Shown here in pieces: positions 487 to 20,924 of a stretch of 64,000 bases of DNA. The translations under genes and the position numbers were made by a program. Under the pieces are notes generated by a model. It was not told the origin of the DNA. It searched no databases and was given only the letters and a program-made list of their open reading frames with translations. Position 1 is the stretch's first letter. Each line of letters starts with the position of its first letter. Origin of the DNA: a virus (taxonomy: Duplodnaviria > Heunggongvirae > Uroviricota > Caudoviricetes); IMG/VR virus record IMGVR_UViG_3300045988_154391; one strand, 5' to 3'.

Positions 487-3474
487 ATGAGCTTAAGCGA
501 TCAGGTGGTTATGGCCACCAGCATAGAAACGCTGATCGAGCTGCTAAAGAACCTGCCCGATTACGGGCGGGTTTCGTATGTGGTGACAGCGAAGGGAGAC
601 GAGGTAAAAACGGCGTTTGATATCGTCGATGCCTCAGCTCTTTTGGTATCCAATACTCTGGATGGGAAAATTAATCCAGACTATCCCCAGGAACTTCAGC
701 CGCGCGATCGGACCCGCGCATCCAGCCTTCTTCAGGTTAACCAGATATCCAAGGATTTGCGTCCTGCCCAGCTTACCGATTCCGGTTTATCCAGCCATGG
801 CGCGCCGATAATTGGTGAGGACAATGCCGTTGAGTCAGGTAATGGGCGGACCATGGGGATCATCAAAGCCTATCAGGACGGCAATGCGGATCGGTATCGT
901 GAGTACCTGATTGAACATGCGACCGAATTCGGCATACGACCTGAAAAGGTTGAATCAATGACGGCTCCGGTACTGGTGCGCCGCCGGTTAACTAAGGTTG
1001 ACCGCGTTCAGTTTGCCAAGGACTCAAATATTTCTGATCTTCAGGAAATGGCAGCCAGTGAAAAGGCTTTTGTTGATGCCGACAGCATAACTCCGGCGAT
1101 GATGGCGCTGTTTAACCCATCAGAAAGCGGAGATCTGCTTAGCCGCAGTAATGACGCGTTTATCCGCGGATTCATGACGCAAGTTGGTGCCACACAGGCT
1201 GCTGGCCTTGTAACGGAAGATGGGCGACCAACACGGCAACTTGTAGACCGTATACAAAACGCGATCTTTGCCAAGGCATATAAGGATGCGCGCCTGGTAA
1301 GGATGGTTGCAGAAGAACCTGATCCGGATATGCGTAATGTTCTGACGGCGCTTAATGCGGCAGCCAATGATTTTGTCCAGATGCAGGCTTTATCAGGAGA
1401 AGCGCACAAGCAGGCTGTGACAACTATCGTTGATGGCATTGAAACAGCGGATAGCCTCGATAAAAAGGCGCTGGCGGCATTGAAAGATGCGGTAGACCTG
1501 GTAAGGCAATCGAAGGAGTCAGGCCAACATATTACCGATGTTATTGCTCAGGGGGATATGTTCAGCGAAACAGCCCCGGAAGTGAAAGCTCTCGCGTTGT
1601 TCATCGTCGCGAATAACCGTAGCGCGAAGCGTATGGCCACCGCCTTTAAATTGATGGCACAACGTATAAATGATGAGTTACAGCACCAGGGCCAGGCGCT
1701 GGGGGATATGTTTGGCGGTGGTGATGTGTCGTTACAGGATATCCTTCGCCAGGTGTCTCAGGAACTGGAAAACGAAGGCATGCAAGGGATATCCGGCGGT
1801 CTTTTCGAGTCCGTTTCCGGCGGTAGTTACAACGGTGTTGCTCCATATACCAGTTTGCTATTACATCGGGCATCCGGCATCAAAGACATTATTCATCTGA
1901 TCAGGCTGCTTTCCCGTACAGATCCCCATGATGAACAGCTTGTACAAGTGCTTGCGCATTTTGTTCGAATGCCTGTTGCCGACGTGAAAAAATGGTGCCG
2001 ATTATTCGGTATCAGCAATTCGTTACTTCGCGGCTTGTTAAATCACGCATCCTCCCTTGGGCGCGATGGCTTTGACGAGATAGCGCAGGCGATAAAAAAC
2101 GGAGATATGCCACCAGCTATTGACTGGTTTTCCATTCGCCCAACCAGGGTGAAAGCATTCCTTAGCGCGGCGCATTCGGCATCACCATTGGCAGAAATGG
2201 TTCAGAGGTTGTCGCTCATATTCACAGACCATACCGCGTTGGGTGATCTGACTCTGGACGAGATGAAAGATGCCTCCATTCAGTGGGCCGATCAACAAAA
2301 TGAGGTTAACTCAGACTTCTTGACAGCATTCAGGAAGGCCGTTAGTAAAGCGGATGATGCCCGTGGAATTCTGAAGGCATTTAAGGCATTGCAAAGTCGT
2401 GTTAATAAACATGTCGGTGATATCGATGGGGTAACGGCGGAAGGCCGGGATATCCTTAAAGAGCACGGCATAACGCCAGAGTTTATTGATGAGATCAGGA
2501 CTGATATGCAGCGTGAGGTCGTATCGTCCCTGCAAATCGTAGCCAGAGCTTTGGCGGATGCTAATCCGAAGAGTGCGGCCATTGTTAACCGGGTTATTGG
2601 TGATATTGAAGCATCGGAGGGCATGGGGGCGCTGAAACTCTTCCTTTCGCGAGCGTTTAATCCTAACGGCAATATTCTCCCTGGCATTATTGGTGAGGCT
2701 AAAAAGTATGTCAGTGAAGAAGAACTTGAGCAGCTTGACCAACTACTTAAGCGATTCTCATATAACCCGCAGACACGCTGGCAAATGAATCAGCGAAGTA
2801 TGGGTTCGGTCCACGAGAAAGTGTTATCTGCCATGAACAGTGCGATCGCAAACTCATCCGTATCTGAAGAAAAAGCTCTTGAGTGGGCTGACTCTTTTAT
2901 CACAGAAGAAGTGGAAGAAGCCCGCGCTGGACAGAATGGTGGGATAGACCTGCGCAAGGAACTTGCTGATATTTATCGCCTGACCGGCGGGAAAATATCG
3001 ACCTTATCAAAGGTAGTTCACCACCAGGGAAGGGCATATGCAAATCTAAATGGTGTTGTTGCTGTCAATTTGAACGATGAAAATGCAAGTGCACTGTGGC
3101 ACGAGCTGGGTCATCATCTTGAGTACAGTAACCCTGGTTTGTTAGAGAAAGCCCGGTCATTCCTGAAGGCCAATGTTGAAGGGGATAAGCCATCTTTCGT
3201 CAATATCGGTGGGCGTGGCAAGCCTGAATGGTGCTTCAGATCTCGATTGAGTAATATTTATATGGCGAAGGTATACCCGCCAGCCTCAGTAAGTAACACC
3301 GGGAAAATTCGGCAGAAATCACCGACTATTTCCAAAACGTCAGCAACGGAAGTATTCTCTATGGCTCTTCAGTTGTATCATGACAAAGAGGCCGCTGCCG
3401 CATCACTGATGAATGGTGACGGATTGCTGGAACTGTTATTAGGTGTGGCAAAGGAGCTAAATAATGCAGATTAA
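487..3474 (+). CDS. Large (995 aa) virion/antirestriction-like protein with C-terminal HExxH motif (WHELGHH); possibly DdrB-like
   Basis: Long ORF with start after AGGG; HExxH zincin-like motif near residue 880; sits where the P1 dar/ddr head-protein genes lie relative to ssb-lyz. Specific identity not verifiable here. Confidence 0.55.
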   Translation: MSLSDQVVMATSIETLIELLKNLPDYGRVSYVVTAKGDEVKTAFDIVDASALLVSNTLDGKINPDYPQELQPRDRTRASSLLQVNQISKDLRPAQLTDSGLSSHGAPIIGEDNAVESGNGRTMGIIKAYQDGNADRYREYLIEHATEFGIRPEKVESMTAPVLVRRRLTKVDRVQFAKDSNISDLQEMAASEKAFVDADSITPAMMALFNPSESGDLLSRSNDAFIRGFMTQVGATQAAGLVTEDGRPTRQLVDRIQNAIFAKAYKDARLVRMVAEEPDPDMRNVLTALNAAANDFVQMQALSGEAHKQAVTTIVDGIETADSLDKKALAALKDAVDLVRQSKESGQHITDVIAQGDMFSETAPEVKALALFIVANNRSAKRMATAFKLMAQRINDELQHQGQALGDMFGGGDVSLQDILRQVSQELENEGMQGISGGLFESVSGGSYNGVAPYTSLLLHRASGIKDIIHLIRLLSRTDPHDEQLVQVLAHFVRMPVADVKKWCRLFGISNSLLRGLLNHASSLGRDGFDEIAQAIKNGDMPPAIDWFSIRPTRVKAFLSAAHSASPLAEMVQRLSLIFTDHTALGDLTLDEMKDASIQWADQQNEVNSDFLTAFRKAVSKADDARGILKAFKALQSRVNKHVGDIDGVTAEGRDILKEHGITPEFIDEIRTDMQREVVSSLQIVARALADANPKSAAIVNRVIGDIEASEGMGALKLFLSRAFNPNGNILPGIIGEAKKYVSEEELEQLDQLLKRFSYNPQTRWQMNQRSMGSVHEKVLSAMNSAIANSSVSEEKALEWADSFITEEVEEARAGQNGGIDLRKELADIYRLTGGKISTLSKVVHHQGRAYANLNGVVAVNLNDENASALWHELGHHLEYSNPGLLEKARSFLKANVEGDKPSFVNIGGRGKPEWCFRSRLSNIYMAKVYPPASVSNTGKIRQKSPTISKTSATEVFSMALQLYHDKEAAAASLMNGDGLLELLLGVAKELNNAD

Positions 3475-3775
3475 AATCGCAGCGCCATTAGGTGGAGATG
3501 CCATTATCGAATTTGATGATAATGAAGAAGTTTCCGGGCGTTTAAGCATTATCTCCGGTGACATTACCGAGGACATGATCGCTGAAGCCATAGCTGGGGC
3601 AAATCCCAATAGCTATATGGGATTCGTTAACACCCTTGATGCTCCCGCAAGTGATGTTCTCCGAACGCTGCATCTTTACGCTGGCTGGTTTGTTGATTGG
3701 CCAGCAGTAGATGGTGGCGATGAGGACGACGACGACGATGATTTTGGTGATCATGTAGACCAGATCGTATATTGA
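3464..3775 (+). CDS. Small acidic protein (103 aa, poly-Asp C-terminus)
   Basis: ORF overlapping the end of the 995-aa gene by 11 nt, followed by a terminator hairpin. Confidence 0.45.
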   Translation: MQIKIAAPLGGDAIIEFDDNEEVSGRLSIISGDITEDMIAEAIAGANPNSYMGFVNTLDAPASDVLRTLHLYAGWFVDWPAVDGGDEDDDDDDFGDHVDQIVY

Positions 3776-3778
3776 AGA

Positions 3779-3807
3779 AATCCCGCCAGTCGGCGGGATT
3801 TTTTTAA
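3779..3807. terminator. Intrinsic terminator hairpin between convergent genes
   Basis: Stem TCCCGCC/GGCGGGA (3781-3787/3792-3798) followed by T7 on the plus strand. Confidence 0.6.
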
Positions 3808-4586
3808 TCGCTTTCCACTTCTTCCGTGGTGTTTTCTTGCAGTTCTGTTAATGCAGCACGACATAGGTTCCGGGCATTGGCTATAGCCACACTTTTGACT
3901 TCATCCGTCATCGTGCAGGTAATGTACTGATCGAGTTCTTCAGCGCGGATGATGCTTTTGCCAATCAGAAACTGTATTTGCCAGAGCAGATCGGCATCCA
4001 TAATCAGAATTTCTGCCGGGCCTTCAGGGCCAGCCGGGAAGGAAACATAAGACTGTTTGCCCAGGCCGACAACTCGACAACTTGCTTCAAGAATTGCGCG
4101 CTTGAGGTCTGACTTTATAACGGAAACAGGTTGATTTTCACCAGTGATTACGCCGTTGACATGGAAAGGCATGTAGCTTGAAATACGCTCCACTTTCCAC
4201 ACGCCAGCAAGCGATCCTTCATGCAGCACAATGGGGGTAACCGCGAGTTTCATCTCACCATATAGCTGCTGGCAGATAGCTGGATTGCTGAATACATCTA
4301 AAGGCTCACATTCAAACAGCGGCGCAATCTGCATGAGGTCCATCATGGTCATCCCTGGGGTACGAGCAGTAATGAATCTGCGCATACCAGTATCCATTGC
4401 GCTCCAGATTGCTACACCATGCTTTTTGCTCACTTCTTCAGTAAAGCCAAGGTGGCACATGATGGTTTTTTCGATAGCCAGATCAGAGATCGAAACCTTT
4501 TCGCCAGGCACACCATCATTATTGATGGTCACTTCGACACTCTGACCATTACGCAGGCGGTATTGAATTGCTTTAGTATTTTCCAC
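3804..4586 (-). CDS. Hypothetical protein (260 aa), last gene of the ssb operon
   Basis: ORF 6 nt downstream of the DUF2829 gene on the same strand; no recognisable motifs. Confidence 0.55.
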   Translation of the reverse strand: MENTKAIQYRLRNGQSVEVTINNDGVPGEKVSISDLAIEKTIMCHLGFTEEVSKKHGVAIWSAMDTGMRRFITARTPGMTMMDLMQIAPLFECEPLDVFSNPAICQQLYGEMKLAVTPIVLHEGSLAGVWKVERISSYMPFHVNGVITGENQPVSVIKSDLKRAILEASCRVVGLGKQSYVSFPAGPEGPAEILIMDADLLWQIQFLIGKSIIRAEELDQYITCTMTDEVKSVAIANARNLCRAALTELQENTTEEVESD

Positions 4587-4592
4587 GTTAAA

Positions 4593-5270
4593 TCACTCCA
4601 CTACAAACCAGTCACATGCCAGTAAGTCGCCTACAGAAGGAACCCACGGAACAACTACACCTTGTGCATTTTTTAAGGCGAAATAAGCACCATACGGAAC
4701 GAGGTCGCCGGGGAAATATCCCTTAATGGCTTCCATTCGTGCCGGGTACTGTCCTTCAGGAACCAGCCAGCAGAATTGGTTTTCGCCGTTCCACCCGCGT
4801 CGGGCAACTTTCTTGCCATCCTTCAGCCACATCAGCGCGTCAGAAAAGTCGGCTGCTTCAAGGTCGATTTCTTCTTGTAGAGTAGCGATACCGCCAGCAG
4901 AAATAGTTACGTCCCTGGCTGTAATGAATGTCACCCCATTGTGACCTTCAATGCTGAGCGATACCCCATTTTCGAAGAAGTCGTTAGTCCGACTAAAGCC
5001 TTCTTCAAATGTTTTTTCTGGTGAATAGGACAGAGATCCGTCCTCATAAGCGACCAGATATCCGCCAATTTCTGGTCGGTGTTTTTGCAAAAATATTTTA
5101 TCAACATGGACTTTTACCCCTTCTGGCTCAACGACTTCGATGTTGCAAAAAAGGACCACATCCATTAGGGCGATAATTTCGATATCTTTGATTTTTGAGG
5201 CGCGAACTGTTTTATGGCTTTTGTATTTTGGAAGTGCCGTCAAAAGCTCTTTCGTTGTCATGTTATTCAT
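4593..5270 (-). CDS. Two-domain protein with C-terminal DUF2829 (Thoeris anti-defense Tad2-like) domain
   Basis: ATG at 5270 preceded by GAGGAAAG. C-terminal ~85 aa (ALMWLKDGKKVARRGWNG ... PWVPSVGDLLACDWFVVE) fits the DUF2829 signature. The track ORF extends to a GTG at 5438. Confidence 0.6.
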   Translation of the reverse strand: MNNMTTKELLTALPKYKSHKTVRASKIKDIEIIALMDVVLFCNIEVVEPEGVKVHVDKIFLQKHRPEIGGYLVAYEDGSLSYSPEKTFEEGFSRTNDFFENGVSLSIEGHNGVTFITARDVTISAGGIATLQEEIDLEAADFSDALMWLKDGKKVARRGWNGENQFCWLVPEGQYPARMEAIKGYFPGDLVPYGAYFALKNAQGVVVPWVPSVGDLLACDWFVVE

Positions 5271-5467
5271 AGTCTTTCCTCTGCTTAAAACCTGATGTAT
5301 TGCGCCTTCAGGTGGGTCAGGAATGTTTTCCCACCAGCGAACGCAATATCTCGGGGTGTTCTTTTCGTGAAAAGCGCGTGCCATTGCCAACTTTGGCGTT
5401 TGTTTGCGAGTTCGTGCTTTTGTCGGCGTCTGGACCACCGCTTTTCTTTCAGTCGTTTTTTACACAT

Positions 5468-5956
5468 TCAAAACGGAATATCGTCGTCAAAGTCCATTGG
5501 AGGTTCGTTATTGGCGTTGCTCTGAGGTTTACCGCCACCACTGTATTGCTGGTGGTTTTGAGGTTGGTTTGATTGCCCCCAGCCATTTGAGGACTGTGAA
5601 TCGTCACGGCGAGCGCCGATCATTTGCATGGTGCCGCCCTGGCTGACGATAATTTCCGTCGTGTAACGTTCTACACCGGCGTCATCTGTCCACTTACGGG
5701 TTTTAAGTTTCCCTTCGATGTAGACCTGAGAACCTTTTCGTAAATACTCACTCGCAATTTCAGCAAGTTTTCCGAACAAAACGACTTTATGCCATTCTGT
5801 TTGCTCTTTCTGTTGGCCCGTTTGCTTGTCGCGCCATGATTCATTCGTTGCGATGCTGAGTCTTCCGACCGCTCCGCCATTTGGTATATACCTGATCTCC
5901 GGGTCTTGCCCCAGGGTACCAATCAGGATGACTTTGTTTACACCGCGTTGTGCCAC
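5468..5956 (-). CDS. ssb: Single-stranded DNA-binding protein
   Basis: Near-canonical SSB sequence ([19 protein letters not shown] ... acidic tail MDFDDDIPF); GTG start. Confidence 0.9.
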
Positions 5957-5975: not shown

Positions 5976-5992
5976 AAATTAATTAGAGCAAT
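5976..5992 (-). promoter_or_regulatory. C1 repressor operator upstream of ssb (Op21-like)
   Basis: Plus-strand AAATTAATTAGAGCAAT, one mismatch to the reverse complement of ATTGCTCTAATAAATTT, 20 nt upstream of ssb. Confidence 0.75.
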
Positions 5993-20824: not shown

Positions 20825-20841
20825 AGAATTATTAGAGCAAT
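20825..20841 (-). promoter_or_regulatory. C1 operator (Op99 cluster-like) between loxP and coi
   Basis: AGAATTATTAGAGCAAT, two mismatches to the operator reverse complement. Confidence 0.65.
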
Positions 20842-20907
20842 AAATTTTGAGAGAAAAATCCCACTCCACCAGCCAAAAACTGGATTGTTTTTCATAGTTG
20901 TTTGACA

Positions 20908-20924
20908 ATTGCTCTAATAAATTA
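20908..20924 (+). promoter_or_regulatory. C1 operator (Op99 cluster-like), inverted partner of 20825-20841
   Basis: ATTGCTCTAATAAATTA, one mismatch to consensus. Confidence 0.75.

Follow-up and report, generated by a model that had tools for sequence, protein, structure and literature searches.

A Tad2-domain fusion with a Dec-like N-terminal module beside isaA in a P1-like phage-plasmid

Described Tad2 proteins, Dec and the P1 background

Proteins of the Tad2 family (DUF2829) form homotetramers whose pockets lie where protomers meet. Ligand specificity varies widely among them, and in the characterised members an insertion in the fold forms a second ligand pocket. MoTad2 (ModTad2), a stand-alone protein of 89 aa from a Myroides odoratus prophage (PDB 9EIB, 8V3E), sequesters His-ADPR, the signal of type II Thoeris, and also inhibits Pycsar by holding cUMP/cCMP in the second pocket, at the interface where HgmTad2 binds cyclic dinucleotides. 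In HgmTad2 (AcrIIA7, 8KBI), gcADPR is contacted by W21/N22/G23, W87, S90 and D93, mutation of which lowers binding. HgmTad2 has a longer insertion than MoTad2, to which cGG/cGAMP bind, while SPO1 Tad2 (8SME) has a shorter one. The domain tolerates fusion at either end, as seen in Acb4-Tad2 of phage Pm86, which was tested and stays functional, and in Tad2-Sequestin; Sequestin (PF21825) is itself a known sponge that was uncovered by the criterion of fusion to Tad2. Dec of phage L (PDB 6E3C), on the other hand, is a late, capsid-binding trimer. Its OB-fold binds capsids, its residues 90-134 are disordered in the monomer and become a trimeric beta-helix on assembly, and the protein ends in this spike.

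In P1, the isaA-IS1-isaB interval has been published as variable region RD-2 of P1-like elements, isaA and ssb were found to be non-essential by CRISPRi, and the laboratory phage was blocked by E. coli Pycsar in published assays. A 2025 DefenseFinder survey recorded "Tad2 AcrIIA7 (anti-Thoeris)" in 56% of P1-like and 93% of D6-like phage-plasmids. From this survey and the DUF2829 name used by RefSeq, the presence of a Tad2 gene in such phage-plasmids was already known. In the literature we found no description of a Dec-like OB/stalk fusion, of an allele mosaic in the second-pocket insertion, of an exact insertion at the isaA start or of a recurrent Tad2-isaA adjacency, and the searchable literature yielded no paper that combines Tad2 with an OB-fold.

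The ssb-Tad2-isaA locus

We analysed a 64,000-nucleotide stretch of DNA (the window), the first 17 kb of which match phage P1 in reverse orientation. A 2.7-kb stretch around the Tad2 gene matched E. coli plasmid NZ_CP148287.1 at 100% identity, Salmonella phage SJ46 at 99.6% and vB_EcoM-Ro157c2YLVW at 99.2%; these near-identities, together with the P1 match over 17 kb, show that the source element is a P1-like phage-plasmid. Of 628 PLSDB plasmids that matched the 2.7-kb query, 106 covered at least 80% of it, implying that both the Tad2 fusion gene and isaA are present in them. The P1-matching end carries ddrB (487-3474, plus strand), hxr (3464-3775, plus strand), three minus-strand genes and then lyz, pro, prt and darB. 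The first gene of the minus-strand unit is ssb (5468-5956), which encodes the phage single-strand DNA-binding protein (Pfam SSB, E=7e-40) and is annotated ssb in P1 and SJ46. It is followed by the Tad2 fusion gene (4593-5270, minus strand; 678 bp, 225 aa), with its ATG at 5270 and its stop at 4593-4595, and after a gap of 6 nt by the isaA orthologue (3804-4586, minus strand; 260 aa), whose GTG start at 4586 has a GGAG 9 nt upstream. The initial annotation had placed the interval beside the Dar antirestriction genes, and comparison with P1 bore this out, with ddrB and hxr flanking it. The convergent hxr gene (103 aa; PHROG 2292; annotated hxr in P1 and SJ46) forms the right-hand boundary of the variable slot. 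Its product is called 'possible repressor, homolog of Xre' in the P1 annotation, and a Pfam search returned no HTH and no other match for it. The protein is very strongly acidic, with a pI of 4.05, a net charge of about -21 over its 103 aa and a DDDDDD tail, and its gene overlaps the ddrB stop by 11 nt. In these respects hxr resembles the closing gene of the Dar/Ddr operon, perhaps for a DNA mimic or a packaged protein, more than a repressor gene.

Upstream of ssb, and overlapping the ssb promoters, is the operator for the C1 repressor, Ossb (formerly Op21; 5976-5992, minus strand). Its sequence, ATTGCTCTAATTAATTT, has one mismatch to the C1 consensus ATTGCTCTAATAAATTT, and the surrounding stretch differs from the annotated Op21/Ossb promoter-operator region of P1 by four substitutions, none of them within the operator. 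Ten C1-operator-like sites were found in the window against 0.04 expected by chance. These sites, which include 20825-20924 and 53767-53794 besides eight others, contain an overlapping inverted pair (53767/53778) and a close pair (20825/20908), both of which are probably bivalent operators of the kind known from P1. A late-promoter search detected no box before the Tad2 gene; its sole find was the nearby LPlyz, an exact match, and allowing 2 mismatches gave pure noise. Operator identity and the lack of a late-promoter box in front of the gene thus upheld the earlier placement of the Tad2 gene in a C1-controlled early unit. Of the further claim that three genes sit behind one C1 operator, the operator upstream of ssb stood, with the same sequence as P1 Op21, and we infer a single operon in which the Tad2 gene and isaA are co-transcribed with ssb from Pssb. 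A sigma-70 and terminator scan reported no promoter at the locus; since neither the known ssb promoters nor the plain hairpin came up in it, we did not rely on it, and it was likewise too insensitive to exclude a promoter inside the leader between ssb and the Tad2 gene. The hairpin (3778-3801) lies between the isaA stop and the convergent hxr stop and is common to the ssb-Tad2-isaA and ddrB-hxr units. It has a 10-bp GC-rich stem, with folding energies of -17.1 kcal/mol on the minus strand (z=-4.0) and -24.2 kcal/mol on the plus strand (z=-5.9), there followed by U7, and by these predictions it can terminate transcription in both directions.

The gene start proposed initially, a GTG at 5438 that gives an ORF of 281 aa, was rejected in favour of the ATG at 5270. 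RefSeq calls the 225-aa protein, named as DUF2829-containing, from this ATG on at least 1000 contigs, and the PHROG 872 alignment begins at residue 57 of the 281-aa ORF. In D6-like plasmids the 225-aa gene begins 14 nt after dut and lacks the extension. The 56 leader codons are open in P1 too, there in the frame of another gene, isaA; in that frame all three substitutions between the window and P1 in this stretch are non-synonymous. Taken together, these observations identify the 56 codons as an over-extension of the ORF, so that the 197 nt after ssb are best read as a conserved leader (5271-5467, minus strand), which ends in the ribosome-binding site AGAGGAAAG followed by N4-ATG. Alignment showed that the leader is near-identical to the ssb-isaA leader of P1, with 3 substitutions, and that homology stops exactly at the ATG. 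Its RNA is moderately structured (fold z=-2.6), and an Rfam scan of the locus, leader included, gave nothing above threshold. Although two open frames cross the leader, it is probably not translated. Within this region, an ORF of 60 very basic residues (pI 11.7; 5285-5467, minus strand) opens at an ATG that overlaps the stop of ssb (TGAATG) and closes 12 nt short of the Tad2 start; the only annotations of it come from a handful of older GenBank records.

The initial annotation had placed the interval at a variable position of P1, and we matched it to the isaA-IS1-isaB interval of that phage. Near-identity between the window and P1 runs from ssb to the end of the leader, and the same ATG opens isaA in P1 (core MTAQNTKTIQYRL...) and the Tad2 gene in the window, where isaA follows (MENTKAIQYRL...). 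The Tad2 gene is absent from P1, the breakpoint falling exactly at the isaA start codon; in P1, isaA is followed by IS1 and isaB and then by hxr. Tad2 cassettes have been placed repeatedly just before isaA in phage-plasmids of the P1 and D6 types. Other cargo was also seen in the slot: p50EVA-2 has a HipA-family kinase (YjjJ; L011 1905-3209) between ssb/isaA and hxr, while P7 (L003 3152-4267) and the mcr-1 plasmid pD72-mcr1 (L010 1191-2303) have an OmpC/NmpC-type porin in place of isaA.

The 260-aa protein encoded 6 nt downstream had been described as lacking any recognisable motif. The spacing was as stated and no Pfam, NCBIfam or PDB sequence match was found, but the protein could be identified as the orthologue of P1 IsaA, with 95% identity to the IsaA core and a PHROG 2326 match over residues 1-260 (E=1.5e-149). 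IsaB was considered as its counterpart and dismissed, since it shows no similarity; P1 isaB is unrelated to the Tad2 gene as well as to isaA. In contrast to the 260 aa found here, P1 IsaA (YP_006486) is annotated with 320 aa because it includes the leader ORF (3586-4548 in NC_005856, our L001), and most gene callers start homologues at an internal ATG (262-264 aa). The P1 annotation is thus over-extended by 56 codons, which are the ssb-isaA leader. The first ~14 codons of isaA in the window (MENTKAIQY...) are D6-like and unlike P1, marking a recombination joint, although the D6-type homologue as a whole is only 49% identical to the 260-aa protein. The family is small, consisting mostly of members from P1/D6-type elements and about 15 remote relatives with 19-45% identity. 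An AF2 model of IsaA was confident (pLDDT 87, pTM 0.83) and predicted two alpha/beta units and a long C-terminal helix.

Domains and alleles of the fusion protein

The DUF2829 signature that had been noted at the C-terminus was confirmed by a Pfam HMM search, in which PF11195 (Tad2-like) matched residues 197-280 of the 281-aa ORF and all but the first of its 73 profile positions (2-73), with E=2.5e-22 and a score of 79.6 bits, the gathering cutoff being 25 bits. Both motifs quoted earlier, ALMWLKDGKKVARRGWNG and PWVPSVGDLLACDWFVVE, occur in the translation. The domain comprises residues 138-225 (4593-4859, minus strand, including the stop), and its fold, an N-terminal helix and then an antiparallel beta-sheet that carries an insertion, was recovered in an AF2 model of moderate confidence in this part (pLDDT 50-93). 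By sequence and predicted fold, these 88 C-terminal residues are a genuine Tad2-family domain. The nearest solved relatives were MoTad2/ModTad2 (9eib, 8v3e) at E about 1e-19, followed by HgmTad2/AcrIIA7 (8kbi), SPO1 Tad2 and SptTad2; HgmTad2 and SPO1 Tad2 share the DUF2829 fold at lower identity (E about 1e-9). We used the HgmTad2 residues as the pocket reference, the His-ADPR contacts of MoTad2 being published only as figures. The gcADPR contacts W21/N22/G23, W87, S90 and D93 are kept here, as W160/N161/G162, W209, S212 and D215. W160, G162, W209, S212 and D215 were invariant in 31 relatives, and N161 is replaced by K in some alleles; at the position of T92 of HgmTad2, which contacts the adenine, our protein has Gly and MoTad2 has Ser. 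Between the two Tad2 motifs lies a segment of 46 residues, the length found in MoTad2, and the two segments can be aligned. With about 46-50% identity, the domain is closest to MoTad2, so that His-ADPR (type II Thoeris) and cUMP/cCMP (Pycsar) are suggested, by analogy, as the most likely ligands. This assignment is weak because specificity varies so widely in the family. Binding was demonstrated for MoTad2 while it is predicted from sequence here, and the domain, which stands alone in MoTad2, makes up only the C-terminal third of our 225-aa protein.

The ~140 residues in front of this domain had been called uncharacterised, and indeed no Pfam model covers them. They are nevertheless recognisable as a homologue of the OB-fold and stalk of Dec. 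Residues 1-96 form the Dec-like OB-fold domain (4983-5270, minus strand), of which residues 5-96 were confidently predicted as a small beta-barrel. Residues 97-137 (4860-4982, minus strand) form an acidic, beta-rich linker that aligns to the start of the Dec trimeric spike (Dec residues 90-124). A profile of 20 N-modules matched Dec at E=1.8e-7, with an alignment that spans the conserved P-E-[IV]-G-G-Y-L...F-E motif and runs into the spike start, while a single-sequence search reached only E=0.27 and the N-domain by itself, used in a word-indexed homology search, brought up nothing beyond close fragments. The linker had a pLDDT below 50 in the monomer model; this low confidence, found also for the Dec monomer, may mirror the monomer disorder of the C-terminal part of Dec. 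The N-terminal OB-fold is therefore of the Dec type, but the late structural character of Dec was not found, the gene lying in the C1-controlled ssb unit. Unlike Dec, in which the spike ends the protein, the stalk here measures 41 aa and is followed by the Tad2 domain, in an early, repressor-controlled unit. We infer that the Dec-like OB-fold and stalk probably act as an oligomerising scaffold. dUTPase, likewise a trimer, is found joined to this Tad2 domain in two distinct arrangements. A stalk that is trimeric like that of Dec would, on the other hand, clash in symmetry with a Tad2 tetramer.

Close alleles from E. coli, Salmonella and Shigella combined two exchangeable linker types with three insertion types, having 46, 54 or 37 residues between WNG and W.PS. 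All six of the possible combinations occur, and the flanks stay conserved. An internal-deletion derivative without the Tad2 domain (P0088) was also found.

Proposed role and competing readings

We consider it likely that the 225-aa gene codes for a cytoplasmic sponge, expressed early, that takes up the signalling molecules of bacterial immunity, with the Dec-like module as a scaffold and isaA as a separate accessory gene. On infection or prophage induction, C1 would leave Op21, and ssb, the Tad2 gene and isaA would be transcribed up to the hairpin at 3778-3801. As in other Tad2 proteins, the C-terminal domain would form oligomers, and it would hold ADPR-derived TIR signals in the conserved pocket made of the WNG loop and the W..S..D motif, and a second ligand, a cyclic mononucleotide or dinucleotide, may bind the pocket made by the 46-residue insertion. 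A Thoeris- or Pycsar-type effector would then never be activated. The N-terminal OB-fold and stalk would provide the oligomerising scaffold, and isaA would be a separate, conserved, non-essential accessory gene of P1/D6-type phage-plasmids. A bolder version of this proposal, which we hold to be doubtful, is that the N-module is either a new signal-binding module, making a two-specificity sponge, or a trimerising scaffold by which Tad2 oligomers are cross-linked to give large assemblies, and that IsaA, whose gene always comes next in P1/D6 phage-plasmids, may be an anti-defence protein of a kind not yet described.

The 260-aa protein had initially been presented as a partner of the Tad2 protein, and a two-gene module, in which IsaA processes, degrades or relays the Tad2-bound signal or inhibits a second defence system, was weighed on the distribution of both genes. 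An IsaA homologue follows the Tad2 gene directly, at 6-22 nt, in five loci (window/SJ46, D6, p92_MLI108-2, L008 and L014) that represent two phage-plasmid lineages and two genomic contexts, the D6-type order (cre - wHTH - dut - Tad2 - isaA) differing from the P1 ssb unit. This recurrence and the confident fold of a conserved IsaA family speak for cooperation. However, IsaA occurs without Tad2 in P1, p50EVA-2, L005-L007 and L009, and OB-Tad2 occurs without IsaA in lambdoid-type early regions of other phages (L013, Klebsiella phage SopranoGao (L015) and L016), which does not fit a partnership and makes the two-gene module improbable. The 370-bp joint formed by the Tad2 C-terminus and the isaA start was 97% identical between the window and D6, while the rest of the D6-type homologue (P0133, presumably D6 orf113) was only 49% identical at the protein level, suggesting recombination that used isaA as an arm. 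We read the adjacency as a shared insertion slot and not as an obligate pair. In D6-type elements we also observed a conserved protein of ~167 aa with a repeated winged-helix-like motif (...RxVYTF), encoded before dut, Tad2 or isaA beside a cre-like recombinase (L005 930-1439; L008 3580-4083; L009 1-339), for which no Pfam match was found.

The N-terminal OB-fold could also be a second, undescribed signal-binding module, which would make the protein a dual sponge comparable to Acb4-Tad2 and Tad2-Sequestin. Fusion to Tad2 is the very criterion by which Sequestin was recognised as a sponge, the OB-Tad2 architecture is conserved across diverse enterobacterial phages, and in P0061 and P0109, relatives of the window protein, a Sequestin domain lies at the C-terminus. 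Nucleotides or oligosaccharides are common ligands of OB folds, and such matches were present among the structures listed; a Pfam-based fusion screen would have missed an N-domain that has no Pfam model. Still, we think such a dual function quite unlikely. In the Acb4 and Sequestin fusions the partner is a known sponge, whereas here the only significant relative of the N-domain is a capsid-binding protein, and the domain has few invariant polar residues. Moreover, the same Tad2 domain is fused to dUTPase (two ways), a tail-fibre repeat and other small beta-barrel modules as well as C-terminally to Sequestin, and the dUTPase and tail-fibre modules are not sponges. The dUTPase-Tad2 fusions (P0056; L008 4064-4978) arose in two ways in D6-like elements that have dut directly upstream of the Tad2 gene, and one of them is named simply 'dUTP diphosphatase' by NCBI. 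In a temperate phage, an OB-Tad2 fusion adjoins an Acb2/Tad1-hairpin gene (L013 3598-4648), and another locus encodes a triple OB-Tad2-Sequestin fusion of 363 aa (L016 4001-5092); the two look like small anti-signalling islands in early regions.

The main structural rival is a virion-associated protein, whose Dec-like OB-fold and stalk would bind a P1-type capsid, or the head interior like the Dar proteins, with DUF2829 displayed as an adhesin-like ligand binder or injected as a pre-made sponge. The profile homology that reaches into the Dec spike, a variant (P0023) in which a phage tail-fibre repeat lies N-terminal to the same Tad2 module, and the position of the locus between head-processing and Dar/Ddr genes are consistent with this role. 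We nevertheless judge it very unlikely: the gene belongs to the early ssb unit under C1 control and lacks a late-promoter box, while LPlyz close by is an exact match; other phages place the fusion beside repressor and anti-defence genes and not among structural genes; the nucleotide-pocket residues are conserved; and a few copies per virion would be a weak sponge. It is thus the early-gene context, here and in other phages, that disfavours a place on the virion. That the protein is an AcrIIA7-type anti-CRISPR against Cas9 is hardly credible: E. coli and Salmonella hosts have type I CRISPR and are not known to have type II, and although DUF2829 was first reported as AcrIIA7, and two structures deposited as such, 8kbi and 9kzr, are hit at E about 1e-9, later work found this protein (HgmTad2) to be a sponge for gcADPR and cyclic dinucleotides, and Cas9 binding was never demonstrated.

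Our preferred reading, an early cytoplasmic sponge on a Dec-like scaffold, bears on P1-like phage-plasmids, which are common in clinical E. coli, Shigella and Salmonella. For annotation, the analysis provides a corrected start codon, the over-extension of P1 IsaA and a domain assignment for about 140 formerly blank residues. If the Dec-like scaffold holds true, capsid-decoration modules would have been re-used in cytoplasmic counter-defence; if instead the protein were virion-associated, sponge domains would be carried on virions. P1 is a laboratory workhorse, and since the laboratory phage is naturally without the gene and is blocked by Pycsar, it can serve directly as an isogenic background in which to ask against what the series of natural alleles protects. 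Should the three insertion alleles differ in ligand, the locus would show, in compact and natural form, how sponge specificity evolves when cassettes are exchanged.
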